From positions 1-37,117 of the forward strand of contig JAEOTS010000077.1 in assembly GCA_016839745.1 (NCBI GenBank): DNA of 37,117 bases, read 5' to 3'. This DNA comes from Promethearchaeota archaeon (GTDB lineage: Archaea > Asgardarchaeota > Lokiarchaeia > Sigyniarchaeales > SOKP01). Positions 12,922 through 31,727 of this stretch are shown one piece after another (position 1 is the first letter of the stretch; every line of letters begins with the position of its first letter). Made by a program: the position numbers and the translations under genes. Under the pieces are notes generated by a model. The model saw only the letters and a program-made list of their open reading frames with translations. It had not been told where the DNA came from and ran no database searches.

Positions 12922-13443
12922 TTATGATTTTTGCTGTTGGTTCTTCATATGTAAACCCATCTTACGCCAAGATTGACGTCCTGCTTCCCATACTTTAGCT
13001 TGTGTATTTTCTCCTTTCAATTCTCTCCCTATCCATTTTTGATTAGCAGGAATTTTTTTTCCCATACTAACAAAAGATTTGGCTCCAATCATGGAATCAT
13101 TTTCAACTGTTACGGAGGGCATCAATACTGACTGGATACCAATAACAGCATTATCTTTAACCGTAGCCCCATGAATTATTGCACCGAATCCAATTAAGTT
13201 ATTATCGCCGATTCGAGTTCTACACCCTTCAGCAGTATTAATTACACAACAATCTTGGAAAACATTCTTATTTCCAATCTTAATTTTAGCAAAATCCCCT
13301 CGAATTATTACTCCTTGATATACCGTATTTTCAGAACCCATCTTAACATCTCCAATAATCCATGCTGATTCTGAAATCCAACACGATGGGTCTACATCAG
13401 GTGTTTTTAAAACTCCATTTACTTCTATTGAAACAATTGGCAT
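12922..13443 (-). CDS. Gamma-carbonic-anhydrase-like hexapeptide-repeat protein (PaaY/CaiE/YrdA-like)
   Basis: Left-handed beta-helix repeats, 'IIGDV', 'IRGD', 'FQD'; two of three Zn-ligand His positions are substituted. Confidence 0.85.
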   Translation of the reverse strand: MPIVSIEVNGVLKTPDVDPSCWISESAWIIGDVKMGSENTVYQGVIIRGDFAKIKIGNKNVFQDCCVINTAEGCRTRIGDNNLIGFGAIIHGATVKDNAVIGIQSVLMPSVTVENDSMIGAKSFVSMGKKIPANQKWIGRELKGENTQAKVWEAGRQSWRKMGLHMKNQQQKS

Positions 13444-13491
13444 TTTTTTGTATTCACCACTTTTTTTTCTTTAAACTTCATAATTATATAT

Positions 13492-14679
13492 CTATTTCAT
13501 ATCTATAAATTTACCCGAGATAAGTAAATTACAGGGCTTTAAATAAGATTTACCTAACTTTTTCGCAGTTTCTTCTAAGAGTTTTTTTAATTGATTATGG
13601 TTTTTAGTAGCATACTTCATTGGGCCCTGAAAATTCATACCTGCTAAAATCACTTCATCAATTATTTTCCAGCCTGATACTAGTCCTTCTTCTAAAATTC
13701 TACATCCCTCATTAGTAGTAATGGCAGTAAAAACTTCACGATTAACTAGCCCTGCCTTTTTTGACAGGTCTGGATTGGGTCTCCCTTTGGACCAATCATA
13801 ATAACCTTGTCCTGTTTTTTTTCCTAATTTTCCTTGTTCTACTTGTTTTGTCAAAACTTTCCCTGGCTTATAGTCAGGAGATAACTTTTCAGCATAATAT
13901 AGTTGAACATTATAAGTTATGTCCAATCCTACAAAATCTGATAATATTAATGCAGACATTGGAGTGTTTGGTCTAGTAAGATCAGCATCTACTTGCTCCC
14001 ATGGAATGCCCTTTTCATAAGCTAAATCAATAATATAGTTAGTATAAATACTACTTGGTGAAAGAACACGATTTAGAATGAAACCTGGCCGATCCTTTAG
14101 CACTCGAACTACGTACCTTTCACCTCTCAAGCAAGGAAGAGATTTCGAAATTTCAACTCCTGTATCCATTGATTTTTGAGAGCTTGTATCTCCTTTAATT
14201 ACTTCAATAAGCCGCATTAATGGAGCGGGATTAGAAAAATGTATTCCAATTACATTATTAGGTTTACCGCAATTCTTGGCGATCTCTGTAATGCTCAGAG
14301 AAGAAGTATTTGAAGCTAATATGCAGTGATCAAGAGAATTATCAATAACCGTTTTACAAATTTTTTGTTTTAGATCCAAATTTTCTGAAACAGCCTCAAT
14401 TACTAAATCTGCATCCTTTACTGCCTCAATAAGATCACTTGTTGTCTTTAACTTAGATAAATAGTCCCCTACACTTAATCCCTCTTGTAATTTTCCTTTT
14501 TTTTTCAGTTTTTCAAATCCGCTTTTTATGTAATCTACTCCTTTATTGAGTATTTCATAGTTTGTATCCACTGCGGAAACATTATAACCTGCCATTAAAC
14601 ATACTTGGGCTATTCCTTTTCCCATATCTCCCAGACCAATTATTACAATATTATTAATATCAATCAATTCTCTCAACAA
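13492..14679 (-). CDS. 3-hydroxyacyl-CoA dehydrogenase (with duplicated C-terminal domain)
   Basis: 'IGLGDMGKGIA', 'IEAVSENLDLK', 'ASNTSSL', catalytic 'GIHFSNP...IE', 'LGKKTGQGYY'. Confidence 0.93.
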   Translation of the reverse strand: MLRELIDINNIVIIGLGDMGKGIAQVCLMAGYNVSAVDTNYEILNKGVDYIKSGFEKLKKKGKLQEGLSVGDYLSKLKTTSDLIEAVKDADLVIEAVSENLDLKQKICKTVIDNSLDHCILASNTSSLSITEIAKNCGKPNNVIGIHFSNPAPLMRLIEVIKGDTSSQKSMDTGVEISKSLPCLRGERYVVRVLKDRPGFILNRVLSPSSIYTNYIIDLAYEKGIPWEQVDADLTRPNTPMSALILSDFVGLDITYNVQLYYAEKLSPDYKPGKVLTKQVEQGKLGKKTGQGYYDWSKGRPNPDLSKKAGLVNREVFTAITTNEGCRILEEGLVSGWKIIDEVILAGMNFQGPMKYATKNHNQLKKLLEETAKKLGKSYLKPCNLLISGKFIDMK

Positions 14680-14706
14680 GTACTTTTTTATATTATAATG
14701 GAAAAG

Positions 14707-16020: not shown

Positions 16021-16078
16021 CTTTCTTCTTACCTTATTTTATTTTTGATCAAAAATTCTATTCATATTAATCAGTTTT

Positions 16079-16543
16079 TCAACTAAAATTGTCACAAAAT
16101 ACAGCGTCCTTAAAAAAATCAGTAATTTTGACTAATTTATTGGTATTCATATTCAATATTAACCTAACTATAATACCTTTTACTAAAAGTGTATCCTCAG
16201 ACTTTGTATTTTTATAACAGTTAATTGCAAATGTAATTGAAGTAGTCCCAACTTTCAAAAGACGCGTATAAAGTAAAATAGTGTCCCCAAATGTTGCCGA
16301 CTTTATATATTCAATCTCGACTTTTCTCACGGGAAATACAATACCTTGTTTATGCAATTCTCCACAATTTTTTTTGAGTTTTTGAGTAAAGCTAATAAAC
16401 GCATCGTCAAAATAGTTGAGATATTTATTTGAATGCACAACCTGCATTAAATCTGTATCATCTACACGAACTTCTATTTCTTTATAGTCCTCAGTTCCCA
16501 TTAATTTATCGATGATCTCTTTCTCTTCTTCTCTAATTATCAT
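16079..16543 (-). CDS. Hotdog-fold acyl-CoA thioesterase (4HBT/YbgC family)
   Basis: 'VRVDDTDLMQVVHSNKYLNYFD', 'IEYIKSATFGD'. Confidence 0.9.
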   Translation of the reverse strand: MIIREEEKEIIDKLMGTEDYKEIEVRVDDTDLMQVVHSNKYLNYFDDAFISFTQKLKKNCGELHKQGIVFPVRKVEIEYIKSATFGDTILLYTRLLKVGTTSITFAINCYKNTKSEDTLLVKGIIVRLILNMNTNKLVKITDFFKDAVFCDNFS

Positions 16544-16574
16544 TATAACCTTACTACTTCTCTTCTAATGATCG

Positions 16575-17450
16575 TTATATTTTCGTGTTTAGAATTAATA
16601 TTTTTTTTGTCTCATCCGTAGTTGCGACTTTGCGACCAACCATTTCTACCAATTTAGTTGCCCATTGAACTTGTTCAAAACTTCCTTTTGCTAAATCACC
16701 ATTTGGCATTCTAATGTTATCTTCTAAACCAACTCGAATATGACCTCCTTCGATCACTCCACAAGTATTAGCCTTAAATTGATCTTTCGCGATTCCACAA
16801 ACACACCAAGTAGCGTTAGAAGGTGATATTGCTCTGTAATGGGCAAGATTTTGAATATTGAAAGGTGCACCTCCCACAACTCCAAACACATATTGAAAGT
16901 GCATCGGTTCAGAAAAAACTTGATACTGTTTTTGAATATATAATATATTATATAACCCTAGTTCACTAAATACCTCGATTTCAGGTCGAATACCAAGCCT
17001 TTTAGTAACTCGCGCCATTCGTATCATTGTATGAAAGGTGTTAAAATATTCACCTTCATACATGATTTTTTTTGTAATTGGATTTATATTTACCCAATTC
17101 ATAGTCTGCGTATCAATAGAGCAAAGTTCTGGTTGTATGAGTTTAATTGGTGCTAATCTTTCTTTATCAGTTGTTCCAGTTCCTCCAGTAATATTAATTA
17201 TTATTTCAGGACATGAGGTTTTTATTGCCTTTATTATTGCTTCATATCTTTTAGGATCTTGGGTAACTAATCCATCATCTGTTCGTGCATGAATATGGAC
17301 AATTGAAGCTCCTGCTTCATAACATTTTAATGATTCTTCAGCGTATTCTGCTGGAGTGTATGGAACATTTGGATTTTGTTCTTTTAGAGTCGTTGCACCA
17401 ACTAAAGCAGCAGTTATTATTGTCCTATTTAATAAATCTTCATTTGTCAT
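16575..17450 (-). CDS. Beta-keto acid cleavage enzyme (BKACE, DUF849/Kce family)
   Basis: 'IITAALVGA', 'PYTPAE', Zn ligands 'HIHAR', 'PEIEVF', 'GGHIRVGLEDN'. Confidence 0.93.
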   Translation of the reverse strand: MTNEDLLNRTIITAALVGATTLKEQNPNVPYTPAEYAEESLKCYEAGASIVHIHARTDDGLVTQDPKRYEAIIKAIKTSCPEIIINITGGTGTTDKERLAPIKLIQPELCSIDTQTMNWVNINPITKKIMYEGEYFNTFHTMIRMARVTKRLGIRPEIEVFSELGLYNILYIQKQYQVFSEPMHFQYVFGVVGGAPFNIQNLAHYRAISPSNATWCVCGIAKDQFKANTCGVIEGGHIRVGLEDNIRMPNGDLAKGSFEQVQWATKLVEMVGRKVATTDETKKILILNTKI

Positions 17451-17472
17451 TTTTATTTCCCCATTTAAATAA

Positions 17473-17892
17473 TCATTTTAGGATTTCTTCAAGTTCTTCA
17501 AATATAATTTCTGTTGCTTGTCCAAATCGAGCAAGATCTTCTAAATTTCCTTTAACATTTAATTCTCCTTTAAGATAATCTTGTTTCATATCAATCAATC
17601 TTAAAAAAATTTTAATGAATTTTTCTTTTGCCATAGTTAATGTTAATTTAGTTTCAGATGTACTACCGAACCCAAATGAAAATTTTGCATTGGCAATTTT
17701 AATCCAAATTGGTTCATGGTCTAATAAATGAACTTGAATTATGCAATCCCAATCTTTTACTTCTTCTTGAACATCTATATAAGTATTGGCTATCTTTACG
17801 ATAACCTTAAGAAAGTCTACAAGATTTATTTTGTTCAAATAACCATCTTTAATCAATTTTTTTAATTCATTCATTTTATTTCTCTCTTTCAA
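17473..17892 (-). CDS. SCP2 sterol/lipid-carrier domain protein
   Basis: 'LTLTM...DYLKGELNVKGNLEDLARF' SCP2 signature; likely ATG start at 17874. Confidence 0.8.
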   Translation of the reverse strand: MKERNKMNELKKLIKDGYLNKINLVDFLKVIVKIANTYIDVQEEVKDWDCIIQVHLLDHEPIWIKIANAKFSFGFGSTSETKLTLTMAKEKFIKIFLRLIDMKQDYLKGELNVKGNLEDLARFGQATEIIFEELEEILK

Positions 17893-17918
17893 CTTTTTGA
17901 GTTGAAAATTACATTATT

Positions 17919-19322
17919 TCACTTTTTATGAAACAAATATCTGCCTATAAGTACCGATATTTTACTTTTATCCTTATTTACAAAAAATTCTATATTTGTT
18001 TTCTCCATAGACCTATCAAAGGTATAAAATCTCAATTCTCTTAACTTCTCATCATATGGGATGAGAGGTGTGCTTTTTGGGAGAACATACTGAGATTTTT
18101 CATCTGGTTCAAAGTAGAGCATTCCCTCCTTTCTAACTATTTGTCCTTTTAGCATGCCTCTATATGTTTCATAATTTCCCACAAGGGATGCATATTTCAT
18201 ATCAATAGTCTTGGGAAAAAAAACTTTCTCAGGGTTTCTGCCAAGAATTACTGCTGACAAGATAAAAGGGATCAAATATGCAACAGGCTCACCCGTTCCC
18301 GAATTTGTAAGTGTAGAAATTCCTACCTTTTTTTCGGGGATAAAAAGCATATTTGAACTAGAAACGCTTGTATTGCCAGAATGAAATACCAATTTTGTGT
18401 TGCAAAAATTTTCAATTAGAAATACACCATATCCATATCCCTCAATTATTGGTTCATCTGTCATCATTTGAATAATTGGTGTATTTATATGAATCGTGGT
18501 CATTTTCGCTATCAGTTCACTACTAAGTATATCCTTATCTTTGTACTTCCCATTATTATTGAGCAATTCTAAAAAATGCAAGACTTCAAGACTACTACTT
18601 AATAATCCACCAGAACCGTGGATCAATTCACTGAATGGATGGGATTTTTCTACTCCTTCTAAATAAGCCGTCATTTTATCAATATCTGCTTCGAATATCT
18701 CTCTTTTAAAAGTACTTCTTTTCATTTCTAAAGGATACAGAATCTCTTGCTGAATAAAGTCTTCATACTTTATTTTAGAAACCTTTTCGATTATCCTTTG
18801 TAAAATAGTATACCCATCATTAAAGTAGATCCATTTTTTGCCAGGTGGGTAGCATCGTTCTTTAGTAGCATTATTAATGTGATCCTGCCAATCATCCCAA
18901 TTATTTATTTGAATGTCTGTGAATTCAGTTCCTAGCGCTTTTGTAATAGCAATATAGCTTCCTAAAAGTGCAGGCAAACCAGAAGAGTGCGAGAGTAAAT
19001 GATGTACAGTTATTTCTTCATCTCCTATCTTAAATTCAACATATTTCGATACTGGATCGTTTAGATTAATTTTTCCTTCTTGGACTAATAACATTATTGC
19101 TAATGCTGTAAAAGTTTTAGTTGCGGAGCCAATTCCTATTAAAGTATCATTTGTCATAGGTGATTTAGATTTTTTATCTCTATATCCATAACTTTTTTGT
19201 AGAATGATATCACTTTCATTCGATACAGCAACGCTTATTCCTGGAACCTTAAACATTTCCATAAGTTCCTTAACTATTCCATCAAAAACACTTAAAAACT
19301 CATTTGAAAAATAATTTGACAT
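17919..19322 (-). CDS. Beta-lactamase-fold serine hydrolase (AmpC/CubicO, Pab87-like peptidase)
   Basis: SxxK 'GSATK', 'LLSHSSG', YxN 'YFN', 'FHSG'; extra C-terminal beta domain. Confidence 0.9.
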   Translation of the reverse strand: MSNYFSNEFLSVFDGIVKELMEMFKVPGISVAVSNESDIILQKSYGYRDKKSKSPMTNDTLIGIGSATKTFTALAIMLLVQEGKINLNDPVSKYVEFKIGDEEITVHHLLSHSSGLPALLGSYIAITKALGTEFTDIQINNWDDWQDHINNATKERCYPPGKKWIYFNDGYTILQRIIEKVSKIKYEDFIQQEILYPLEMKRSTFKREIFEADIDKMTAYLEGVEKSHPFSELIHGSGGLLSSSLEVLHFLELLNNNGKYKDKDILSSELIAKMTTIHINTPIIQMMTDEPIIEGYGYGVFLIENFCNTKLVFHSGNTSVSSSNMLFIPEKKVGISTLTNSGTGEPVAYLIPFILSAVILGRNPEKVFFPKTIDMKYASLVGNYETYRGMLKGQIVRKEGMLYFEPDEKSQYVLPKSTPLIPYDEKLRELRFYTFDRSMEKTNIEFFVNKDKSKISVLIGRYLFHKK

Positions 19323-19334
19323 AATTTTTCCTCC

Positions 19335-20399
19335 CTATTTGTTAGATTTAAAAAAATGTATAAATTCCGATTTTTCCCTTTTTGGGGGAAAAATCGTCAA
19401 TTCGATTTGATTAGAAATTTTAAAACATGAAGTACACAAAGTACCGCCTGTTATTTCACCTATATTTGGTAAATTTACTGTTGTGCCCTTTCTAAATATT
19501 TGCTCATCTGAAATTAGCTCAAGAGCACTATTTGTATTAAATCGAACATCCTTCAAAAGTTCAATGCCCCGATTATACCTTATTTGTGTAGTCGAATTCT
19601 CTTCTAAAGAGGGAATATGTACATCACTGAATTTTGGGCTAAGATAATGATTAGTATGGAAAAATTTATCTTTAATTTCGGTCAACTCTGCTCTACTACT
19701 CGTATATTCGAGATTTATAGCGCGAAATTCCTTCTGCGAAACAATATTATGATTAAATCCAGCATTCCTCTCTTTTTTCAGAATAATTGATTTAACGTGT
19801 TCTATAGAATCTGCCTCACATAAAGCGCGATCATTTAATATACGAGGAAGCCCCGGTTTTTGTTCAGGGTGCGGCACATCATTTCCACTAAATACTATTC
19901 CATTAGAATTAAATCCGAATGCGTTTCCCGGTAAAGATCCTGGATAACAAAAACAAATGATATTTAACCCACTTAAAGTTTCAATATCGCAGATGTAAGA
20001 ATATTTTCCAGTTTCATGTATCATATCTTCATTATGTAAAAGTAAAATTTCTTTTTCAGATTTCAAGATTAAAGTAGAGCAAGATTCAAGTTCTAGTGAT
20101 GCCATCCAGTTCAATTTTAAGATATCTTCTAAAACTAAATCTGCACCCTCAGATAATCCCTTTAATTCTTCCATATATTCAGGATAGAATTTATTGGCAA
20201 AAGTGTTCATCTTCCCTAACCAACTTGGTTTTAATACTTCAAAGTATTTCAAACCTAACTGTATTAGATTTTCCTTAATAGCAGCATGAATATACTCTTT
20301 TGCTTGAGTCCCGATGGAGTAACCAATCTCGTAATTAGTCCCTTTAGCCTTAAATACTGGTAAATAATTTTCAACATCTAAAAATTTAATAAATTTCAC
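19335..20399 (-). CDS. Peptidase C45 family Ntn hydrolase (isopenicillin-N acyltransferase/Tan-like)
   Basis: 'GTNYEIGYSIG', 'EELKGLSEG', autocleavage 'ES|CST', 'HNED', 'HTNHY'; GTG start. Confidence 0.88.
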   Translation of the reverse strand: MKFIKFLDVENYLPVFKAKGTNYEIGYSIGTQAKEYIHAAIKENLIQLGLKYFEVLKPSWLGKMNTFANKFYPEYMEELKGLSEGADLVLEDILKLNWMASLELESCSTLILKSEKEILLLHNEDMIHETGKYSYICDIETLSGLNIICFCYPGSLPGNAFGFNSNGIVFSGNDVPHPEQKPGLPRILNDRALCEADSIEHVKSIILKKERNAGFNHNIVSQKEFRAINLEYTSSRAELTEIKDKFFHTNHYLSPKFSDVHIPSLEENSTTQIRYNRGIELLKDVRFNTNSALELISDEQIFRKGTTVNLPNIGEITGGTLCTSCFKISNQIELTIFPPKREKSEFIHFFKSNK

Positions 20400-20423
20400 A
20401 CCACATTCATTAATTAGTTATTT

Positions 20424-21359
20424 TTAAGGGCGTTTTACCAAGTGAGAATAAATTTCTGGTCTTCTGTCCTTTAAAGTGTTATAAACAAACGATCTCACCT
20501 TATTAAGTTCCTTTCTAGTAATAATTGTTGAGATCAGATATTCATCAATTTTATCATTTGGACTTTCTGCAATTAATTTTCCATCTGGTCCAAAAATTAA
20601 CACCCCTCCAGATAAAAAATATTCCATGGGACCAAGATCATCTAAACTCACTCTTGTAGACCACTGTTCTCCTTTTTCTACACGGTAATCTTTAATATGA
20701 CCAGCACCAACACAAGCTATACTATATACAACATTAGCTCGAGCAGCGGACTGTAAATCGATGCTTACACTCCTTTTCCAATCTTTAATCGCTTTTTCTT
20801 CTGCATTTTTAACACCAGTCTTGAAAGGAGTAAAACCGAATGCATAAGGACTTAGTATTATATCGCATCCTTGGGTAGCATAACAGCGATATACTTCTGG
20901 AAATGAATTATCATAGCATATCGCAATTCCAACTTTAAAACCTCCAATAGTAAATACAGGAAAATGATTACCTACCCCCCAGGTAAAATTCTCGGGAAAG
21001 GGGGAATGTGTTTTGCGATAGTAGCCTATAATTCCTTCTGTGCCAATTAAAATATGTGTATTAAAGATTGAATTACTATATTCTTCTGCTAACCCTACCG
21101 CAACAAATATTCCTCCAATCTTAACAATTTCATCAATTAAATGTTTAATTGAATCTCCACCAATAGGTTCAGCTGCTGAAATTAGTTCTCGCGAATTCCA
21201 ATATCCCGTAATATTCAATTCAGGAAATAATAAGAGTTCTATCTCTTGTTCTTTTGCTTTTTTAATCCATGAAATTGTGTTTTTAACGTTCTCTTCTGGA
21301 TCTCCAGGAAGACTTTTCATGGAAACTGCACCGATTTTTAACTTTGAATCATTTTTCAT
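20424..21359 (-). CDS. Carbon-nitrogen hydrolase (nitrilase superfamily amidase)
   Basis: E-K-C triad: 'FPEL', 'YRKTH', 'ICYD'; C-terminal 'DRRPEIY'. Confidence 0.92.
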   Translation of the reverse strand: MKNDSKLKIGAVSMKSLPGDPEENVKNTISWIKKAKEQEIELLLFPELNITGYWNSRELISAAEPIGGDSIKHLIDEIVKIGGIFVAVGLAEEYSNSIFNTHILIGTEGIIGYYRKTHSPFPENFTWGVGNHFPVFTIGGFKVGIAICYDNSFPEVYRCYATQGCDIILSPYAFGFTPFKTGVKNAEEKAIKDWKRSVSIDLQSAARANVVYSIACVGAGHIKDYRVEKGEQWSTRVSLDDLGPMEYFLSGGVLIFGPDGKLIAESPNDKIDEYLISTIITRKELNKVRSFVYNTLKDRRPEIYSHLVKRP

Positions 21360-21383
21360 TCTCTATTCTCCTAATCTATGTTC

Positions 21384-22775: not shown

Positions 22776-22796
22776 CTCTTTTTCTACTCCTTATTA

Positions 22797-23474
22797 TTAA
22801 AATGATGGATTGTATGTTGCGTTTTTGAATAAAAAATCTTTAATTGTTTTTAACGCATAAGCACGATAATCTTCTCTTAGAATTAATTTTGCATTACCAT
22901 TATTAATTGGATCAATAACCTTCGCTTTAAATTTCAAATGGGTTTCTGCTTTAATCGCTCCAAACATCATTGCCCAAAGATGATACGTGAATAGATCAAT
23001 ATCATCCACTTGGAGTTCACCATTATCTATCGCTGCTTGAATAACTTCCTTTTGATAAAAAAATCCATGTTTTAAATCATAAGAATCTTCAATTGGGCCA
23101 GAACTTTTGGATGGTGGAATCATAGCTACGAATAAAAATAAAAACATTGGAAAATCTTCCCCCATTTTATCAATAATTGCCTTTGTTATTTTGTATATTA
23201 ACTCTAGATTAGTTCCATCATGATTTTCAATGATGGAATCAATAATTTTATCATGTTCTTTTCTATAACTTGATCTTACTGCAATCCATAACTCCCTTTT
23301 ACTTTTGAAATAATTATAAAGATTTGACATCTCCATATTCAAACCTTTTGCTAGAGAGTTCATACTTATGGTTTGAAAATCACTTCTTTTATACATCTCT
23401 TTCGCAGTTTCTATAATTTTTTGAAATTGAGCTTGTTTTTTTTCAGGTGCTCTGGCTCGAGTCTTTTTTCCCAT
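22797..23474 (-). CDS. TetR/AcrR family transcriptional regulator
   Basis: 'IIETAKEMY...ISMNSLAKGLNM...NLYNYFKSKREL' HTH. Confidence 0.9.
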   Translation of the reverse strand: MGKKTRARAPEKKQAQFQKIIETAKEMYKRSDFQTISMNSLAKGLNMEMSNLYNYFKSKRELWIAVRSSYRKEHDKIIDSIIENHDGTNLELIYKITKAIIDKMGEDFPMFLFLFVAMIPPSKSSGPIEDSYDLKHGFFYQKEVIQAAIDNGELQVDDIDLFTYHLWAMMFGAIKAETHLKFKAKVIDPINNGNAKLILREDYRAYALKTIKDFLFKNATYNPSF

Positions 23475-23530
23475 TTTTTTCCACTTCTTTTGTCATTTAA
23501 TTAGGATTTTTAAGATATAAATTTGAATTT

Positions 23531-24838: not shown

Positions 24839-24847
24839 TTTTTTAAT

Positions 24848-26791
24848 TTAATTACCATTAATTTGAAATTCGTTTTTATTATAGAGATGACACGCAACAA
24901 AATGGTTTGGTGTATATTCGATTAATTCTGGAGAATCATTTATACAATATTTACTTGAATAATCACACCGGGGATGAAAGTGGCAACCTTTAGGAAGATA
25001 TATTAGATTAGGGACAACTCCCGGGATTTCAGGAAAATCCTCTTTAGATTTTCCTACTCTAGGAATTGTTGAGATTAAACCTTTAGTATAAGGATGTAAA
25101 GGTTCTCTTTTTAGGTCTTCCAAAGAGCTATATTCCATTATTTTCCCGCTATACATCACTGCAACGTGATCACACATTTCTGAGATAATTCCAAGATCAT
25201 GGGTAATTAATAAGATAGATGTTTGATACTTTTTTTGAAGTTCCTTTATTAATCTTAAGATCTGAGCTTGAATTGTTACATCTAATGCCGTTGTGGGTTC
25301 GTCTGCTAACAACAGTTGAGGATTACAAATTAATGCCATTGCGATCATTATCCTTTGTCTCATCCCCCCGCTTAATTCATGAGGATATCTATTTATTATT
25401 TGTGCGGGGTCGGGAATACCTACTGCTTTAATCATATCTATCGATTTACTTTCAGCAATAGCAAATATTGAACTTAAAGCTTTAAGCTGTTGTATTTTTT
25501 TCAATTTTATATTATTCTCTTTACTGTTTTCATCTTTTTGCAATTTAACTTTCAAAATTTCTATTTCTTCTTCAATTCTGGCTATTTCGGCAATATTGTG
25601 TCTTAAAACCCGTTCTAATTCCTCTTTTTGATGAGTAATGTAAACCTCCGATAATTGATCTCCCACTCGGTAAACTGGATTTAAAGAATTTAATGGGTCT
25701 TGAAAAATCATAGCGATTTTCTTCCCACGATAGTTCAACATTTCTTTCTCTGATTTTTCTAATAAATCTTCGTCATAAAATAAAACATGCCCTCCTTCAA
25801 TTTCACCAGGAGAAGAAATTAATCCCATAACGGATAAAGCGGTAACAGATTTACCACATCCAGTCTCTCCAACTAATCCTAAAATTTTATTTTCATGCAT
25901 TTTAAAAGATACGCCATCAACAGCTTTGACAACACCCTCTTCCGTATAAAAGTAAGTTTTCAAATTTTTTACTTCAAGAATGATTTTTTCCTGATCACTT
26001 CCCGACAAATTGGAATCCCTAATAAGTTCTTCCCCGATTTTTGAAATTCTTTTTTCCTTTTTTGTTATTAATCTTAATGATAATAATAACCCAAGAAAGT
26101 AAATCACCATTAAAATCCAATATAATTGTAAATTTACAAATATATAAAATCCAAAAAGGAAACCAAATAACCCAAATATTGTGAGATATAAGGCCCAAAT
26201 TCCATATGAAGAAATTACACTTAATATTATTGCTTGTTTTAATATATAGGATTGAATTTTTTTCTTTTTTGGTAGAACTTTGTTAATAAGACGAGTTATT
26301 ATTACTACAAAAATCTCTACGAATATTGACCAGATTAGTCCATATTGGAATTCAATATATATCGGAATTGAGAAAATTCGGATCGTTAATTCGATGATTG
26401 CCAACATTGCAACTACGACTGAAATTAACAGAAAAGGTCTAAAAACATATTTAAAAGTCAATTTACTGCTTTCTTGCCTATCGTCAAGATTTTTTTGTTT
26501 AATAAATCTATGAAATAGTAGATTTATAAAATTAAGAGTCAGCCAGCTAGTTGAAAATAAGATTAAATTATATGAACTTAGTGATAAGTTAATAGATGAT
26601 AATAATACTCCCACACCAAATTCAGCAGAAAATCCAATAATAATACTTAGATACAACTTCCGTAGTAAAAGCTTATTACCAGGCTTCTTATTAGCTGGAA
26701 ATAATGCGTTTACTCCTAAAATAAAGACAAGCATGGTAATTATGTGAAAAATCAAAATCACGGTGAGATACCCAATATCCTCTAAAATCAT
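24848..26791 (-). CDS. oppD: Oligopeptide ABC transporter ATPase (OppD/DppD) with ~7 N-terminal TM helices and a coiled-coil insert
   Basis: 'GETGCGKS', 'LSGGMRQR', 'LLADEPTTALDVTIQAQI', 'GCHFHPRC'; first ~245 aa polytopic. Confidence 0.9.
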   Translation of the reverse strand: MILEDIGYLTVILIFHIITMLVFILGVNALFPANKKPGNKLLLRKLYLSIIIGFSAEFGVGVLLSSINLSLSSYNLILFSTSWLTLNFINLLFHRFIKQKNLDDRQESSKLTFKYVFRPFLLISVVVAMLAIIELTIRIFSIPIYIEFQYGLIWSIFVEIFVVIITRLINKVLPKKKKIQSYILKQAIILSVISSYGIWALYLTIFGLFGFLFGFYIFVNLQLYWILMVIYFLGLLLSLRLITKKEKRISKIGEELIRDSNLSGSDQEKIILEVKNLKTYFYTEEGVVKAVDGVSFKMHENKILGLVGETGCGKSVTALSVMGLISSPGEIEGGHVLFYDEDLLEKSEKEMLNYRGKKIAMIFQDPLNSLNPVYRVGDQLSEVYITHQKEELERVLRHNIAEIARIEEEIEILKVKLQKDENSKENNIKLKKIQQLKALSSIFAIAESKSIDMIKAVGIPDPAQIINRYPHELSGGMRQRIMIAMALICNPQLLLADEPTTALDVTIQAQILRLIKELQKKYQTSILLITHDLGIISEMCDHVAVMYSGKIMEYSSLEDLKREPLHPYTKGLISTIPRVGKSKEDFPEIPGVVPNLIYLPKGCHFHPRCDYSSKYCINDSPELIEYTPNHFVACHLYNKNEFQINGN

Positions 26792-27795
26792 CTTAATTTT
26801 CTCCTTTTTCTAGTAGCTTTTAATCGAGGATCTAATGCATCCCGTAAACCATCTCCTATTAGCATAAAACCTAAAACTGTAATAAATATCATTAATCCTG
26901 GCCAAAAACTAGCCCATGGCGCGGAATATAATCGCAATCTCCCCGCATTAATATCTACACCCCATTCAATTGTGTTGGGATCCCCTAACCCAAGAAAACT
27001 TAGCCCCGCTAATCCTAATATGATACCACCATAATCAAAGGAGATAGCGATAATGATAGGAGAAATAACATTGGGAAGGATATATTTAAACATAATTTTA
27101 AAATTATTCGCACCAGTCACTTTAGCGGCTTCTATAAACACTCCTTCTTTTATCTGTAATACTGATCCCCGAATTAATCGTGCATATCCTGGAATTCCTA
27201 AAATTCCGAACGCGATTAAAATAATATTAATATTTTGACCAAAAATTGAAATAAAAATAAATACTATAATTAAAGTTGGAAATGCTAAAAGAATATCAAA
27301 TATTCTCATAACAATTGAATCTGGAATACCGCCTATATAAGCAGAAATTATTCCTATTATGACACCCCCAATGACGCTTACTAATATCGCTATGGACCCT
27401 AAAGTTAAGGAAGTTACAGCTCCCCAAATTATTCTCCCTAACACATCACGACCAAGGAGAGTCTGCCCTAATGGATGTTCCAAGGAAGGAGGAGAAAAAC
27501 TTCCTTCAAATGTATATTCCGCTAACTCCTTATAGGAAAAAGGAGTTAACCAAGAAGAGAAGACTGCCATTGAGGTAATAAATATTATAATACCAAATCC
27601 TAAGATCGTAATTGGATTCAGGAGTTTTCTGAAAAATTTCCTTTGAGATTTAAATTGGTTAACATTTGCTTCCCATTGAGACAATTCCTGAGGTCTATAA
27701 AATGGAATTATTAGGAATTTGAGATATCGTAATATTTTCCGTTTGAAGTTTATTTCTTTTTGAGGAAATTCGAAGTCGTATTTAATTTGGCTCAT
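26788..27795 (-). CDS. oppC: Oligopeptide ABC transporter permease OppC/DppC
   Basis: 'HPLGQTLLGRDVL', EAA loop 'FIEAAKVTGA', 'LSFLGLG', 'GDGLRDALDPR'. Confidence 0.93.
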   Translation of the reverse strand: MSQIKYDFEFPQKEINFKRKILRYLKFLIIPFYRPQELSQWEANVNQFKSQRKFFRKLLNPITILGFGIIIFITSMAVFSSWLTPFSYKELAEYTFEGSFSPPSLEHPLGQTLLGRDVLGRIIWGAVTSLTLGSIAILVSVIGGVIIGIISAYIGGIPDSIVMRIFDILLAFPTLIIVFIFISIFGQNINIILIAFGILGIPGYARLIRGSVLQIKEGVFIEAAKVTGANNFKIMFKYILPNVISPIIIAISFDYGGIILGLAGLSFLGLGDPNTIEWGVDINAGRLRLYSAPWASFWPGLMIFITVLGFMLIGDGLRDALDPRLKATRKRRKLR

Positions 27796-27815
27796 ACAAG
27801 TTTAATACCTCGTTA

Positions 27816-28859
27816 TTATTTGTATCTTATTCGTGGATCTAATATAGAATATAAAATATCAATAAATAAGTTCCCTCCTATAACAATTAATGAAATTATT
27901 ATTACAATCGCATTAATCATCCAGTAATCCCTTTTAACTACCGCTTCTACTGCCATCCTTCCTAGTCCATTATAGTTAAACACAGTTTCTACTAAAAATG
28001 AACCCGCTAATAAACTAGCTATTTGGTATACTATTACTGAAGTAGTAGGAATTAAAGCATTCCTGAGCATATGTTTATTTATAACTATATCTTCCTCGAG
28101 TCCTTTAGCTCGAGCAGTCCTAATATAATCCTGGTCCATCACTTCTAGCATATTTGATCTTGTTTGTCGTGTAATACTTGCAAATGAGACTAGTATTATA
28201 CAAATTGATGGTAAAATCATATGTTTAATAGTATCCATTAATAGGTAATGATTATTTGCCAGAATGCTGTCAATTGTCCTAAATCCGGTTATATATTGAG
28301 GATCTGGCATGCCTATCCCTTTATACCCAAAAAATGGAAATGTAAGTTGGTAATTTGTAAAATCAGGCAATATCTTTCCAACAAAGAGTTGTAACAACAT
28401 TGCTAACCAAAAGGAGGGCAACGCAACGCCACATAAAGCTAATACCCTAATAATTCCATCTTGAAACTTATTACGTTTTATAGCTGATTTTTTACCAAAT
28501 TTAACTCCAATTATTGGTACTAATATCATTGGAAAAATCATTAGTTCAATCGTGCGAGGAAAAACAATCTTAATAACATCTGAGACATGTTCCCCCGGAA
28601 CAACGCTAGCTGAAATTCCAAAATCACCTCTAAATATATTTAATAAATATATTCCTAATTGTACATACCAAGGATCGTTTAATCCTAATTCTTCCCTTCT
28701 TAATTCTATTATTTCTGGGGGAGTACCTATGGGAAAAATGAAATAGGTCGGATCTCCCATCATTAAACGAGACATAATAAAAGTAAGGATAAGTATTAAA
28801 AATATAAGAGGTATGGCAATAAGTACCCTTTTAGCAATATAAGTCAAGAGATTACTCAA
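27816..28859 (-). CDS. oppB: Oligopeptide ABC transporter permease OppB/DppB
   Basis: 'GDFGIS', 'DYIRTARAKGL', 'HMLRNALIP', 'ETVFNYNGLG', 'DILYSILDPRIR'; TTG start. Confidence 0.94.
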   Translation of the reverse strand: MSNLLTYIAKRVLIAIPLIFLILILTFIMSRLMMGDPTYFIFPIGTPPEIIELRREELGLNDPWYVQLGIYLLNIFRGDFGISASVVPGEHVSDVIKIVFPRTIELMIFPMILVPIIGVKFGKKSAIKRNKFQDGIIRVLALCGVALPSFWLAMLLQLFVGKILPDFTNYQLTFPFFGYKGIGMPDPQYITGFRTIDSILANNHYLLMDTIKHMILPSICIILVSFASITRQTRSNMLEVMDQDYIRTARAKGLEEDIVINKHMLRNALIPTTSVIVYQIASLLAGSFLVETVFNYNGLGRMAVEAVVKRDYWMINAIVIIISLIVIGGNLFIDILYSILDPRIRYK

Positions 28860-28918
28860 TTTTGACCATCTTCTCTTTTTTTTTTAATTATATCGTAATA
28901 TAGTCAATATAATGAGGT

Positions 28919-28987
28919 AAAAAAATAAATTATAAGATCTAATTTATTTTTTAATTACTAGTTATCATTTATTGATTTATAAATGTT
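28919..28987 (-). repeat. Left arm of 69-bp perfect inverted repeat; contains the putative oppB-operon TATA box (28976-28983) and operator-like palindrome (28920-28952)
   Basis: Exact reverse complement of 29220-29288, checked base by base. Confidence 0.95.
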
Positions 28988-29219
28988 ATTACACAATTAT
29001 TTTTGAAAAGAACTCTTCAGAACCAAAGAACTAGAAAGACAGGATTATTCTTTTGACAAGAAACAGCAATTACTAGTTGCTAGGAAAAACAAAAAAATAA
29101 GTTTTTCACTAAAAATATTGATTATTAATATAGAATTGCATTATTCTACCTATGCCATATTCTAAAGACCTTACAAATCCCCAAAACATATATAATTCTC
29201 AGAATCAATATTCGGCGAA

Positions 29220-29288
29220 AACATTTATAAATCAATAAATGATAACTAGTAATTAAAAAATAAATTAGATCTTATAATTTATTTTTTT
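29220..29288 (+). repeat. Right arm of 69-bp perfect inverted repeat; contains the putative oppA TATA box (29224-29231) and operator-like palindrome (29255-29287)
   Basis: AACATTTATAAATCAATAAATGATAACTAGTAATTAAAAAATAAATTAGATCTTATAATTTATTTTTTT; internal palindrome AAAAAATAAATTA-N7-TAATTTATTTTTT. Confidence 0.95.
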
Positions 29289-29326
29289 TTAAAATTTGCA
29301 AAATAAACTTTTTAAAGTGGTAAAAA

Positions 29327-31147
29327 ATGAAAAATAGAACTGTATTAAAATTTGGTTTGATTATCTATATCTTACTAGTTGGTATACTCCCTTTCTATCC
29401 AGTTACCGCGACCTCTGTGGATGGGCTTAAAACTTCCGATGCCTATCATACCTTCATTGCTGGAGGAACTCACCCAGAAGCAGTTTTATGGCTTGATCCT
29501 GTTGCAACAATTGAAGGATGGGAAAATAGAATTCAATGGAATGTCGTGGAAAATTTATTTTGGCAAAACACCACTGATCCCGATTTTCCAATGCTGCCTC
29601 AATTAGCAACAAATTACTCTTGGGAAGACTTTCTCACTGTCGTAGTAGATTTGCGCCAAAATGTTACATTTCACGATGGCACCCCCTTCAATGCTTCAGC
29701 AGTAAAATGGAACTTCGATAGGTTAGCCTATTTAATTTCGCAAGGTTTAGGATCATCTATAACCGAGGCATTTTTTGTTCCTGCTGTAATTTTTCTTGGA
29801 ATTCCCGGTGTAGATATCTCTTGGTTTAATTTAAGCAAAGTTATGATCCCCATCATAAATAATACTGAAGTAGTGAATAATTCTCAAATAAAATTTCATT
29901 TAAATGTTCCATTTGAGCCTTTCCCTTCAACATTGATAACTTTACCTAGTGGAATAATATCGCCTACTGCCCATGCTGCATATAATGAAACTTTAATTGG
30001 AATTGATGTACAGAAACTAGTAAGTACAGGCCCTTTTAAATTTGTTTCTCACTCAGTGGTTACTCTTGAGACTATCCTTGTGCGAAATGACGAATACTGG
30101 CAGGATCCAGCATATATAAGCGATTTAATTTTTTCATATTTTCAGGATGAAAGTACGATGTATCTTGCTATGAGTACTGGCGCTATTGACTTTTTGCATA
30201 CTCCAGGTCCGGATTTCACACTTTATGAAAATAGTCTATGTGATATTCTTTATGGTCCCCCGAATCCTAGTTATTTCAGTCTCGTCGCTATGATTGAACA
30301 CAATGTAAATAACACGTTAAGAAAAGCAATTTCACACGCAGTTGATTACGATTATTATATTAATGATTATTTAGAGGGTAAAGTAGTTCGCATTGAAAAT
30401 GTTATAATGGAGGGATTTGATTATCACAATCCTAATGTTCAAACACCTAGGTATAATTTAACATACGCTCGCCAATTGTTGATTTCTGAAGGTATTGCAC
30501 CTCCTGCAGCATCTACTTGGACTGATCAAGATTGGATCGACAGAGCAGAAATTAATCCTTTAGTGAGCCTTAACTTTACCTATATTGCAGGTGTGATGGA
30601 TATTCAGTATCAAATCTTGAGTAATGATTTAAAGGATATAGGTTTCGAGCTTAACGCCGATGGTTTAACAACGGAGCAATATTTGGGCGCGGTTTATAAT
30701 CCGGGGATTCGATCAACCCTCGATTTGCTGTACATCGATTGGGGTTGGGCGGATACAGACCCTGGTCCCTATCTGCTTTTAATGTATATGGCAGATGCTT
30801 TTATGAATTTTCCATTTTACAACGATTCAGCTATTGAAAATGCTATCTGGGGCGCATTCCTTTCTGGCAATGAAACTGAAAAGCAAGGAATATATGATTA
30901 TATTGCAGCATCGATTCATGAAGACTGCCCATACATATATCTCTTTCAAGAGCAATTTAATTATATTATCTCGAGTGAATGGACAGGCATGGAGCTTCGA
31001 ATTGGAGAGCAATACTTTTATACGCTTTATAAAAAACCAGTTGAACAACCTATAGCTGCAATTCCAGGATATTCACTTTATATTATTGTATTAATATCTA
31101 TTGGTACTATAGCCATAGCCGCGAAAAATCGATTTAAAAAGAAATAA
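29327..31147 (+). CDS. oppA: ABC transporter substrate-binding protein, family 5 (OppA/DppA), with signal peptide and C-terminal IPGY-TM-basic sorting signal
   Basis: 'LRQNVTFHDGTPFNASAVKWNFDR', 'STGPFK', 'LRKAISHAVD'; C-terminus 'IPGYSLYIIVLISIGTIAIAAKNRFKKK'. Confidence 0.92.
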   Translation: MKNRTVLKFGLIIYILLVGILPFYPVTATSVDGLKTSDAYHTFIAGGTHPEAVLWLDPVATIEGWENRIQWNVVENLFWQNTTDPDFPMLPQLATNYSWEDFLTVVVDLRQNVTFHDGTPFNASAVKWNFDRLAYLISQGLGSSITEAFFVPAVIFLGIPGVDISWFNLSKVMIPIINNTEVVNNSQIKFHLNVPFEPFPSTLITLPSGIISPTAHAAYNETLIGIDVQKLVSTGPFKFVSHSVVTLETILVRNDEYWQDPAYISDLIFSYFQDESTMYLAMSTGAIDFLHTPGPDFTLYENSLCDILYGPPNPSYFSLVAMIEHNVNNTLRKAISHAVDYDYYINDYLEGKVVRIENVIMEGFDYHNPNVQTPRYNLTYARQLLISEGIAPPAASTWTDQDWIDRAEINPLVSLNFTYIAGVMDIQYQILSNDLKDIGFELNADGLTTEQYLGAVYNPGIRSTLDLLYIDWGWADTDPGPYLLLMYMADAFMNFPFYNDSAIENAIWGAFLSGNETEKQGIYDYIAASIHEDCPYIYLFQEQFNYIISSEWTGMELRIGEQYFYTLYKKPVEQPIAAIPGYSLYIIVLISIGTIAIAAKNRFKKK

Positions 31148-31229
31148 AATATTAAACATTTTTTTTATTTTTATAATTATTATTCTCTTAGAATAAAATA
31201 ATCTAGTTTAAAAAAATCGTGAATTATTA

Positions 31230-31727
31230 TTGCAAGAAAATAAAATTAGTGGAAGGTTTAATGAAAAAAAAAAAAAAGATAGAATTAAATTTGATCTTGG
31301 CAAGCAAGGAGGATATATAATAGCGATTTTAATTATTTATTTTATCTTTTTTGGTTTGATTAACAGTTATTATGGAAGATATATTAATGAAGAACTTATT
31401 TGGTTATATAAGACAATTTTCGAAGTATATTTTGGAATACCCGCATTAATATTATTTCTCACTTGCCTAATTTTAACTTATAAAGAAGACATTTACCATT
31501 ATGGGATAAAAAACTCAATTTGGCTGAACTTTTTTATTTTTACCTTCGCTTTTTCTTGGCATTGGATTTTGAAAGGTTTTTCTTGGAATCCATTTATTTT
31601 ACTTTTTCTAAATTATCAAGGTTATTTATCAATCTTAGTTCTTATTTCTATTTCTATAGCTGGAGCGTTAAGTGGCTGGAAAATAAAACAATATATAATT
31701 AAAAAAAAGAAAGTATCGTTAGACTAA
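31230..31727 (+). CDS. Hypothetical ~4-TM membrane protein, probably co-transcribed with oppA
   Basis: Hydrophobic 165-aa ORF; TTG start; A14 homopolymer near the 5' end makes the start uncertain. Confidence 0.7.
   Translation: MQENKISGRFNEKKKKDRIKFDLGKQGGYIIAILIIYFIFFGLINSYYGRYINEELIWLYKTIFEVYFGIPALILFLTCLILTYKEDIYHYGIKNSIWLNFFIFTFAFSWHWILKGFSWNPFILLFLNYQGYLSILVLISISIAGALSGWKIKQYIIKKKKVSLD

Follow-up and report, generated by a model that had tools for sequence, protein, structure and literature searches.

The window, the whole 37,117-nt stretch of a Promethearchaeota archaeon contig analysed here, contains 15 genes (Table 1) that form one tight minus-strand operon from oppB to the gamma-CA-like gene (28859-12922), with spacers of -4 to 58 nt, GGAGG-like (Shine-Dalgarno-like) motifs in many of these spacers, and T-runs only past the last gene. 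The earlier note had described a single packed co-oriented run, which is true of these 15 genes but not of oppA and the 165-aa ORF, both divergent on the plus strand. All gene families it had named were reproduced with Pfam and NCBIfam, and the gene content is thus real. Among the window ORFs scanned (a set without several small ORFs) there was indeed no acyl-CoA ligase, acyl-CoA dehydrogenase (ACAD), enoyl-CoA hydratase (ECH) or aldehyde dehydrogenase (ALDH); elsewhere the genome encodes 11 ACAD-like genes and two CoA_trans genes.

Table 1. Genes and features of the operon and its surroundings, in order of transcription of the operon
Feature	Position	Strand	Evidence or remark
M29 aminopeptidase, possible accessory	31772..33064	-	Peptidase_M29 447.9 bits; convergent neighbour
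165-aa hydrophobic membrane protein	31230..31727	+	No Pfam match; divergent
Family-5 solute-binding protein (OppA/NikA type)	29327..31147	+	SBP_bac_5 167 bits; divergent
Divergent control region, oppB/oppA interval	28860..29326	.	Long inverted repeats
OppB-type permease	27816..28859	-	BPD_transp_1 136 bits; first operon gene
OppC-type permease	26788..27795	-	BPD_transp_1 + OppC_N
OppD-type ATPase, 647 aa	24848..26791	-	ABC_tran + oligo_HPY
OppF-type ATPase, 435 aa	23531..24838	-	ABC_tran + oligo_HPY
TetR-family regulator	22797..23474	-	TetR_N 26.5 bits
Class III aminotransferase, PRK06917-like subfamily	21384..22775	-	Aminotran_3 271.7 bits
Nitrilase-superfamily amidase	20424..21359	-	CN_hydrolase 119.7 bits
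C45 Ntn hydrolase/acyltransferase proenzyme (C45/AAT)	19335..20399	-	C45_proenzyme NF040521 158 bits, cut-off 85
Pab87/CubicO-type S12 serine peptidase	17919..19322	-	Beta-lactamase + Pab87_oct domains
SCP2-domain protein	17473..17892	-	SCP2 31.4 bits
BKACE, Thr at Kce Glu14 position	16575..17450	-	276.6 bits
4HBT (YbgC/FadM-like) acyl-CoA thioesterase	16079..16543	-	4HBT_2 48 bits; TIGR00051 57.7 bits
FadA-type thiolase, 437 aa	14707..16020	-	TIGR01930 356.6 bits, cut-off 240
3-hydroxyacyl-CoA dehydrogenase	13492..14679	-	3HCDH_N + 3HCDH
Gamma-CA/PaaY/CaiE-like hexapeptide protein	12922..13443	-	Hexapeptide family match; last gene, T-runs follow

The block recurs in one sister lineage only (locus L113 of genome G918), where it is colinear, approximately 79% identical at the nucleotide level and intact in all ORFs, with the gene for the 3-hydroxyacyl-CoA dehydrogenase missing as an indel. 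Together with the tight same-strand spacing, the Shine-Dalgarno-like motifs and the terminal T-runs, this second colinear occurrence indicates that the gene arrangement is more than chance. Conservation in the sister cluster amounts to 95% amino acid identity for the OppC-type permease, 87-88% for the thiolase (among the best conserved genes), 83% for the TetR-family regulator and 53% for the SCP2-domain gene, the lowest value in the block. Synteny stops at the gamma-CA-like gene, and the L113 flank matches another contig (C101) of the genome studied here; the block thus sits in different surroundings in the two relatives. Conservation of the full gene set, whose absence the earlier note had named as one ground against its proposal, extends to this sister lineage only, at a divergence similar to the genome background, and argues weakly for functional coupling. 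The block is a rare mosaic, as its aminotransferase has bacterial relatives, while its BKACE, Pab87-type peptidase and nitrilase-fold protein belong to archaeal types.

The best PDB match of the solute-binding protein is NikA (67 bits), and peptide binders are no closer; 'Opp' is thus used here in the sense of Opp/Dpp/Nik-type. An ABC importer of this type is present, and its ligand need not be a peptide. The OppD-type ATPase has approximately 290 additional N-terminal residues, with ABC_tran beginning at residue 292. Among the hydrolases, the S12 peptidase, in which the SxxK, YxN and HxG motifs are all visible, matches the Pab87/CubicO self-compartmentalising D-peptidases (PDB 2QMI) along its full length (247.7 bits), octamerisation domain included; in contrast to these, its gene is embedded among CoA-dependent enzymes in one operon. 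The nucleophile cysteine of the C45 protein aligns with Cys103 of IAT, an acyl-CoA acyltransferase and the sole solved C45 relative, and the nitrilase-superfamily amidase, closest in the PDB to the Pyrococcus nitrilase 3ivz, has an intact E-K-C triad. With its full-length Pab87 match, and with C45, beta-lactamase-fold and M29 genes occurring together again in a related genome (L102), the set of hydrolases resembles a peptidase module.

The aminotransferase, with a visible PLP-binding lysine, is best matched by the PRK06917 model (383 bits, under the cut-off of 535). A search of 160 further genomes from the class gave no homolog at E<1e-80, and the nearest named relatives are bacterial (Desulfobacterota, Clostridia; about 50% identity). 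At nine bacterial loci used for context, whose aminotransferases are only 34-50% identical to that of the operon, a BKACE gene is a neighbour in three cases, in the order symporter-aminotransferase-BKACE with a 6-nt gap (L201) or TetR-aminotransferase...BKACE (L193, L198). One further locus (L200) has the order thiolase-CoA transferase A/B-aminotransferase-symporter, its CoA-transferase being of the 3-oxoacid type; the other five, some of them short stretches, contain neither BKACE nor CoA-transferase. These neighbourhoods support the earlier proposal that a beta-amino acid is converted to a beta-keto acid which is passed on to BKACE. Related BKACEs of Asgard archaea pair with an SDR as keto-acid maker (L008); in the block considered here, the aminotransferase is the only conserved enzyme that could make a beta-keto acid.

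All catalytic residues of the operon BKACE (H46, H48, E143, R226, E230, D231) are conserved, and the position of Glu14 in Kce, where it binds the 5-amino group of the substrate (PMC10470551), is occupied by Thr. The substrate side chain is probably neutral, since the residue at this site is Thr, not Glu, Arg or Trp. This replacement and a score of 248 bits against a cut-off of 382 set the enzyme apart from Kce; the genuine Kce/Kat pair of the genome is encoded at C157, and the Thr-type operon enzyme groups in its own small clade.

We consider it somewhat less than an even bet (roughly 45%) that the TetR-controlled operon catabolises an unusual imported amide-linked, beta-amino-acid-containing compound, a putative substrate class. 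The Opp/Nik-type ABC system would import an amide-linked non-standard amino compound, from which at least one of the three cytoplasmic amidohydrolases (D-stereospecific S12, C45, nitrilase-fold), perhaps assisted by the neighbouring M29 aminopeptidase, would liberate or deacylate a beta-amino acid, which the PRK06917-like aminotransferase would convert to a free beta-keto acid. The Thr-type BKACE would cleave this keto acid with acetyl-CoA to acetoacetate and an acyl-CoA two carbons shorter; as this cleavage itself yields an acyl-CoA, no ATP-dependent ligase would be needed. The 4HBT thioesterase would then free CoA from the acyl-CoA product, like CdhB in carnitine catabolism, a task possibly shared by the PaaY/CaiE-like protein. 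Acetoacetate would be activated by a CoA-transferase encoded elsewhere, and the thiolase, in which the Cys/His/Cys residues are present, would recover acetyl-CoA from acetoacetyl-CoA, with the dehydrogenase as an optional add-on providing a link to 3-hydroxybutyryl-CoA. Candidate substrates are an N-acylated beta-lysine-type compound or a beta- or D-peptide. The operon encodes a thioesterase and no CoA-transferase, so the role of the thiolase is not explained within the cluster. Two features fit this pathway poorly: the thioesterase wastes the thioester, and the three hydrolases are tied to no bond type. Two elements of the earlier proposal fared less well. Shortening of the chain by dehydrogenase and thiolase is unsupported, because a saturated acyl-CoA cannot enter these steps without the missing ACAD and ECH, and the dehydrogenase itself is absent from the sister cluster. 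An SCP2 domain is present, but its 31-bit match is the single pointer to a lipophilic substrate, which is thus doubtful.

Alternatively, two unrelated modules might lie on one transcript and yet serve different substrates in a peptide-fermenting archaeon, a view to which we would give about one chance in four. Importer, Pab87, C45, nitrilase-fold amidase and M29 would scavenge D-amino-acid or cell-wall peptides, with the aminotransferase handling ordinary or omega-amino products, and BKACE, thioesterase, thiolase and dehydrogenase would constitute a general acetoacetate/butyrate CoA module. The Pab87 family is described as D-stereospecific, and among solved structures the aminotransferase is closest to omega-amine:pyruvate transaminases (224 bits), both as expected for two modules; the latter match also counts against the pathway preferred here. 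No CoA enzymes are encoded at L102, a locus devoted to peptidases (M28, M29, three C45, a beta-lactamase-fold gene, M19, an MFS transporter, GH3), and in our genome locus C130 similarly joins Opp genes and TetR with CoA enzymes (two ECH, a 69% identical paralog of the dehydrogenase and two thiolases) and an M24 hydrolase. However, the aminotransferase is a foreign addition to genes that are otherwise archaeal, and several of its relatives adjoin beta-keto-acid enzymes; BKACE requires a dedicated keto-acid supplier; gene order and ORFs are kept despite changed flanks; and no ALDH is present to handle an omega-amine product.

The order of steps could also be reversed, as in variant lysine fermentation, where Kce, Kat (3-aminobutyryl-CoA aminotransferase) and acetoacetyl-CoA thiolase form an established triad (PMC3149608). 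BKACE would act first on an amino-bearing, possibly N-acylated, beta-keto acid, and the aminotransferase would turn the beta-aminoacyl-CoA into a beta-ketoacyl-CoA, a direct substrate for the thiolase. Both systems share clustered BKACE, class III aminotransferase and thiolase genes and the formation of acetoacetate by acetyl-CoA-dependent cleavage, and 18 Kat-like aminotransferases adjoin Kce genes in the loci examined. Yet the operon lacks kamA, kamDE and kdd, its BKACE differs from Kce in the lost Glu14 and the sub-cut-off score, and its aminotransferase is PRK06917-like rather than HemL-like, with about 22% identity to the Kat-like protein beside the true Kce. As this order also leaves no conserved cluster gene to make the keto acid, it is improbable, and the aminotransferase likely precedes BKACE.

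Still less probable is a carnitine-like route, in which the 3HCDH-family dehydrogenase would oxidise a free 3-hydroxy acid, BKACE would cleave the product and the thioesterase would release the final one, the aminotransferase being used at another step. Carnitine catabolism reportedly proceeds through CdhA, CdhC and CdhB, a 3HCDH-like dehydrogenase, a BKACE and a thioesterase (described by Bastard et al. in 2014), which dehydrogenase, BKACE and hotdog-type 4HBT thioesterase of the operon mirror; another 3HCDH-like/BKACE pair lies at C151 (L003) of this genome. The operon dehydrogenase, however, belongs to the CoA-ester type, scoring 240 bits against 3-hydroxybutyryl-CoA dehydrogenase but 66-71 bits against carnitine dehydrogenases. 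The sister lineage does without it, and the keto acid probably comes from the aminotransferase. A biosynthetic operon, in which thiolase and thioesterase would make acetoacetate, the reversible BKACE would build a beta-keto acid from acyl-CoA, the aminotransferase would form a beta-amino acid and the C45 protein would be an acyl-CoA N-acyltransferase like its only solved relative, is very unlikely given the importer genes that open the operon, its three hydrolases, and an amide-forming ligase, NRPS and exporter not found in it.

Catabolism of an amide-linked beta-amino compound would not be as undescribed as the earlier note had it, since the same logic has genetic precedents in Kce/Kat and CdhABC, and the operon chemistry is most likely a variant of known chemistry. 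A biochemical precedent is Barker's N6-acetyl-beta-lysine route. In this route, Pseudomonas B4 degrades L-beta-lysine through N6-acetyl-beta-lysine transaminase (EC 2.6.1.65), followed by cleavage of 3-keto-6-acetamidohexanoate with acetyl-CoA and by a 4-acetamidobutyryl-CoA deacetylase-thiolesterase; to our knowledge, its genes were never assigned. The order proposed for the operon would be the same, with transamination of an N-acylated beta-amino acid, acetyl-CoA-dependent cleavage to acyl-CoA and acetoacetate, and hydrolysis of thioester and amide as final steps. The operon goes beyond this pathway in its importer of the Opp type and in three hydrolases of other folds.

Aminotransferases are also paired with beta-keto-acid enzymes in the kamA...yodT locus of Bacillus subtilis (BSU19690-19740; PMC6522883) and in L200-type loci, which use a CoA-transferase and a thiolase where the operon has a BKACE. 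The best structure match of YodT, 3I4J, also matches the operon aminotransferase over its full length, and both may belong to the same subfamily (PRK06917), a membership that for YodT is inferred.

The window has a G+C content of ~32% and carries archaeal and Asgard markers (a Ras-family GTPase and an FrhB-TrmB fusion); the genome in which it is found as contig C43 (G000) comprises 3.5 Mb and is 89% complete. All protein families named in the earlier note were recovered by Pfam and NCBIfam scans. On the minus strand, 15 genes from oppB to the gamma-CA/PaaY-like gene follow each other with spacers of -4 to 58 nt, many of which contain GGAGG-like motifs, and the earliest clear T-runs are located 3' of the last gene. 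The description of the run as co-oriented is true for 15 of its 17 genes, because two genes, coding for the oppA-type SBP and for a membrane protein of 165 aa, run divergently on the plus strand. The oppB/oppA intergenic region contains a long inverted repeat, which includes the motifs TTTATAAA and TAACTAGTAAT, and these likely represent twin promoters together with TetR operators.

Locations of the operon features in the window and of the loci used for comparison
Feature	Location	Strand
Operon, oppB to gamma-CA-like gene	window 28859-12922	minus
oppB/oppA intergenic region	window 28860-29326	
oppD	window 24848-26791	minus
oppF	window 23531-24838	minus
Class III aminotransferase gene	window 21384-22775	minus
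BKACE gene	window 16575-17450	minus
3-Hydroxyacyl-CoA dehydrogenase gene	window 13492-14679	minus
Thiolase/gamma-CA-like junction, metagenome contig L113	L113:12703-12822	
Kce and Kat-type aminotransferase (L001)	G000:C157:18845-22657	
Opp-type locus with CoA enzymes (L202)	G000:C130:14000-34000	
Arg-type BKACE locus (L208)	G086:C164:1-6820	
Peptidase-rich locus (L102)	G086:C17:39000-59000	
Schnuerera aminotransferase locus	L201:3926-7904	
Desulfobacterota aminotransferase cluster	L193:3254-13967	
Desulfobacterota aminotransferase cluster	L198:3800-17000	

The block from oppC to the gamma-CA-like gene is colinear in metagenome contig L113 (~79% nucleotide identity) and also occurs in the MAG Ca. 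Hodarchaeum mangrovi FT_5_011, where the contigs are short (L007, also L209; G918, identical to G975). In this sister lineage all ORFs of the block are intact and share 53-95% amino acid identity with the window. Among 160 loci of BKACE relatives fetched from genomes and metagenomes, a neighborhood like that in the window was found at L007 and L113 and at none of the others. In the sister lineage the dehydrogenase gene is cleanly missing at exact gene boundaries, and the gamma-CA-like gene comes immediately after the thiolase gene. A dehydrogenase paralog on contig C130 of G000 (69% identity) is more diverged than the orthologs (~83%); the one-gene indel represents either an insertion in G000 or a deletion in the sister lineage. 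Synteny between the window and L113 ends directly after the last gene, and the L113 flank instead matches contig C101 of G000 (60-88% amino acid identity). L113 therefore belongs to a genome related to G000, with the block placed differently in the two. No DNA match for oppB and oppA was detected in G918, where the matching contig stops inside oppD. FT_5_011 is classed in the same phylum (family f16), outside the class set of G000, and its cluster contigs (at most 6 kb) closely resemble L113, which could be due to mis-binning or transfer.

The BKACE (beta-keto-acid cleavage enzyme) of the window matches PF05853 with 276.6 bits (cut-off 24.8), and all six catalytic residues of Kce, the BKACE of lysine fermentation, are conserved, i.e. 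the Zn ligands His46, His48 and Glu230 as well as Glu143, Arg226 and Asp231 (Kce numbering). In Kce, Glu14 binds the 5-amino group of the substrate, and the same position is occupied by Trp in triacetate lyase (PMC10470551). At this position, the window BKACE has Thr and a paralog on contig C157 of the same genome has Glu; the Kce equivalog NF052387 (cut-off 382 bits) gave 248 bits for the former and 418.9 bits for the latter. Retention of the catalytic residues in combination with Thr at the Glu14 position and the Kce score therefore predicts an active BKACE other than Kce, whose substrate likely has a neutral side chain. The enzyme also differs from triacetate lyase (CsTAL), both in having Thr instead of Trp and in its NF053538 score (187.9 bits, cut-off 430). 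None of the lysine fermentation neighbors kamA, kamDE, kdd and kal/kat was found among the ORFs scanned in the window. Among 262 relatives the residue at the Glu14 position varies by clade, with Glu in true Kce and Trp, Ala, Val, Met, Phe or Arg elsewhere. A quick maximum likelihood tree groups the window BKACE with an 83% ortholog and one 63% relative (with Ala). The sister of this group is an Arg/Lys/Gly clade; the SDR-linked clade of Asgard enzymes branches separately, and the Kce clade is distant.

Six BKACE paralogs are found in G000. The paralog on C157 is a genuine Kce encoded directly beside a HemL-like, Kat-type class III aminotransferase (Kat, 3-aminobutyryl-CoA aminotransferase), and the two are the Kce-Kat pair of variant lysine fermentation. 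A Kce/Kat identity of the BKACE and aminotransferase of the window was rejected on the basis of the exchange of Glu14 for Thr, the score below the cut-off and the presence of the genuine pair on C157. In the related Asgard BKACE clade (L008) an SDR gene adjoins the BKACE gene, and the SDR could act as supplier of the keto acid. At L208, an Arg-type BKACE of the sister clade is divergent to an operon encoding ECH, a class III aminotransferase and an MFS transporter; two neighbor genes at a further locus of the Arg-type sister clade (L207) had no PDB match.

Within the block, no conserved enzyme other than the aminotransferase is a candidate for forming the keto acid. Its best NCBIfam model is PRK06917 (NF005375), which is matched over the full length with 383 bits, below the cut-off of 535, and the 25 NCBIfam matches listed include no GSA-aminomutase model. 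The top PDB matches are omega-amine:pyruvate transaminases (224 bits), a group marked by activity on terminal amines and a C-terminal flipping arginine, with alignments ending near residue 385 of 463; 3I4J aligns across the full length. The closest structure of Bacillus subtilis YodT is also 3I4J (PMC6522883), and yodT (BSU19740) and kamA (BSU19690), which are separated by a few locus tags, are both SigE-dependent. A tight run in a Schnuerera genome (L201, 34% identity) encodes an SDF symporter, a class III aminotransferase, a BKACE with Val at the Glu14 site and a DUF3870 protein, with a gap of 6 nt ahead of the BKACE gene; this run is a candidate for a compact aminotransferase-to-BKACE pathway. 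Two Desulfobacterota clusters (L193, 50%; L198, 46%) start with TetR and the aminotransferase, followed at some distance by a TRAP transporter and then by a second aminotransferase and BKACE, and are adjoined by corrinoid and URO-D-like methyltransferase genes; the TetR of L198 has a BetI-type C-terminal domain. The composition of both clusters suggests methylated-amine catabolism through BKACE. At L200 (~42%) the gene order is thiolase, CoA-transferase A, CoA-transferase B, aminotransferase and symporter; a further bacterial aminotransferase locus (L197), between CorA and ThiC, is uninformative. We place the aminotransferase before BKACE mainly because several of its bacterial relatives adjoin either BKACE or 3-oxoacid CoA-transferase and thiolase, both of which process free beta-keto acids.

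The nitrilase-fold amidase, C45 protein, S12 peptidase, thiolase and aminotransferase all have their catalytic residues in place. The nitrilase-fold protein retains the Glu-Lys-Cys triad, its FPEL, YRKTH and ICYD motifs align with 3ivz, and it is nearest to a Pyrococcus nitrilase and N-carbamoylputrescine amidase, with scores under every equivalog cut-off. The C45 protein (NF040521, 158 bits; cut-off 85) has a nucleophilic Cys aligned with Cys103 of IAT, which classes it with the autoproteolytic Ntn hydrolases/acyltransferases, and is only distant kin of the fungal acyl-CoA:6-APA acyltransferase. The S12 enzyme shows a beta-lactamase fold with SxxK, YxN and HxG motifs and matches Pab87 end to end, including the octamerisation domain. 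By these features the enzyme is of the Pab87/CubicO type; peptidases of this group are described as D-stereospecific. The SBP has an SBP_bac_5 domain only; its best solved match is NikA (67 bits), with peptide binders no closer.

We propose that the Opp/Nik-type system would import the substrate, whose amide bonds would then be hydrolyzed; the aminotransferase would convert the resulting beta-amino acid to a beta-keto acid, which BKACE would cleave with acetyl-CoA. The thioesterase would free CoA, a wasteful step in the best reading, and the thiolase would regain acetyl-CoA once acetoacetate has been activated in trans. We put the probability of this whole route at roughly 0.45. As the earlier note had reported, no acyl-CoA ligase, acyl-CoA dehydrogenase (ACAD), enoyl-CoA hydratase (ECH) or aldehyde dehydrogenase is encoded among the window ORFs scanned; the rest of G000 contains 11 ACAD-like and 2 CoA-transferase genes. 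Its suggestion that dehydrogenase and thiolase shorten the chain had to be given up, because ACAD and ECH are absent from these ORFs and the dehydrogenase is missing from the sister cluster. Rather doubtful is the broader idea of an Asgard ligase-free route in which a bacterial aminotransferase and archaeal enzymes would scavenge beta-amino-acid-containing amides released by neighboring organisms, such as N-acyl-beta-lysine-type osmolytes, beta- or D-peptides, or lipopeptides.

That two unrelated modules share the operon is unlikely beside the linkage of aminotransferase relatives to BKACE, and is the alternative that survives best. The locus on C130 pairs an Opp-type system and TetR with CoA enzymes, which leaves open a reading of such operons as general peptide-fermentation assemblies. 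This locus encodes oppBCDF (with an OppD-like ORF of 988 aa), a divergent SBP_bac_5 protein, TetR, two enoyl-CoA hydratases, the dehydrogenase paralog, two thiolases and an M24/creatinase-like hydrolase. A Kat-like order, with BKACE acting first, would resemble the pair on C157 and is improbable: the window aminotransferase lacks the HemL-like sequence and the adjacency to kce that mark Kat and is only ~22% identical to the HemL-like enzyme on C157. A hydroxy-acid route similar to that of carnitine degradation (CdhABC) would assign a role to the dehydrogenase and is more improbable still. The dehydrogenase of CdhABC acts on the free 3-hydroxy acid, whereas that of the window scores 240 bits to 3-hydroxybutyryl-CoA dehydrogenase versus 66-71 bits to carnitine dehydrogenase models, and has no counterpart in the sister cluster. 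For an operon that includes an importer, a biosynthetic direction deserves next to no weight.

With regard to origin, a homolog of the aminotransferase was absent from the other 160 genomes of the class at E<1e-80, and a search of 400 genomes of a Bacillota-type phylum gave 1 match. Its orthologs show 87% and 78% identity and the next relatives ~50%, the named ones being bacterial (Desulfobacterota, Clostridia). In contrast, BKACE, the Pab87 peptidase and the nitrilase-fold protein are of archaeal type, and named BKACE relatives are from Promethearchaeota, Thorarchaeota and Heimdallarchaeota. The restricted distribution and the different affiliations of these genes therefore characterize the operon as a lineage-restricted mosaic.

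Barker's N6-acetyl-beta-lysine pathway reportedly follows the same logic as the proposed route. The operon also overlaps in logic with Kce/Kat (PMC3149608) and with the carnitine route CdhABC. The operon is new in its gene set, its BKACE of a Thr-type clade, its imported aminotransferase, and the attachment of three amidohydrolases together with an Opp-type importer. If the coupling of aminotransferase and BKACE holds, it would provide genes for a beta-amino-acid catabolic logic so far known from old enzymology only, as well as a context for four poorly characterized subfamilies (PRK06917-like aminotransferases, the new BKACE clade, prokaryotic C45 proteins and CubicO peptidases), and it would illustrate how accessory catabolic operons are put together in an Asgard archaeon from genes of bacterial and archaeal type, with a bearing on the diet of these syntrophic peptide fermenters in sediments. 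The scavenging route, if true, would be the first gene-level pathway with a transaminase feeding BKACE, and would give functions to the Thr-type BKACE clade, prokaryotic C45 proteins and a Pab87 peptidase within one system.

Of 161 class genomes, 14 have homologs of the C45 protein, with identities of at most 43%, and these homologs share no neighbors except for one peptidase-rich locus (L102) in a related genome (G086). This locus encodes M28 and M29 peptidases, three C45 proteins, a 627-aa beta-lactamase-fold protein, an MFS_2 transporter, an M19 dipeptidase, an AsnC regulator and a GH3 protein, and could be a cell-wall-fragment scavenging system. As C45, beta-lactamase-fold and M29 proteins are grouped here too, they constitute a recurring peptidase set. 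Finally, the ABC domains start as late as residue 292 in OppD and residue 148 in OppF, so that both proteins have long N-terminal extensions; the paralog on C130 is longer still.
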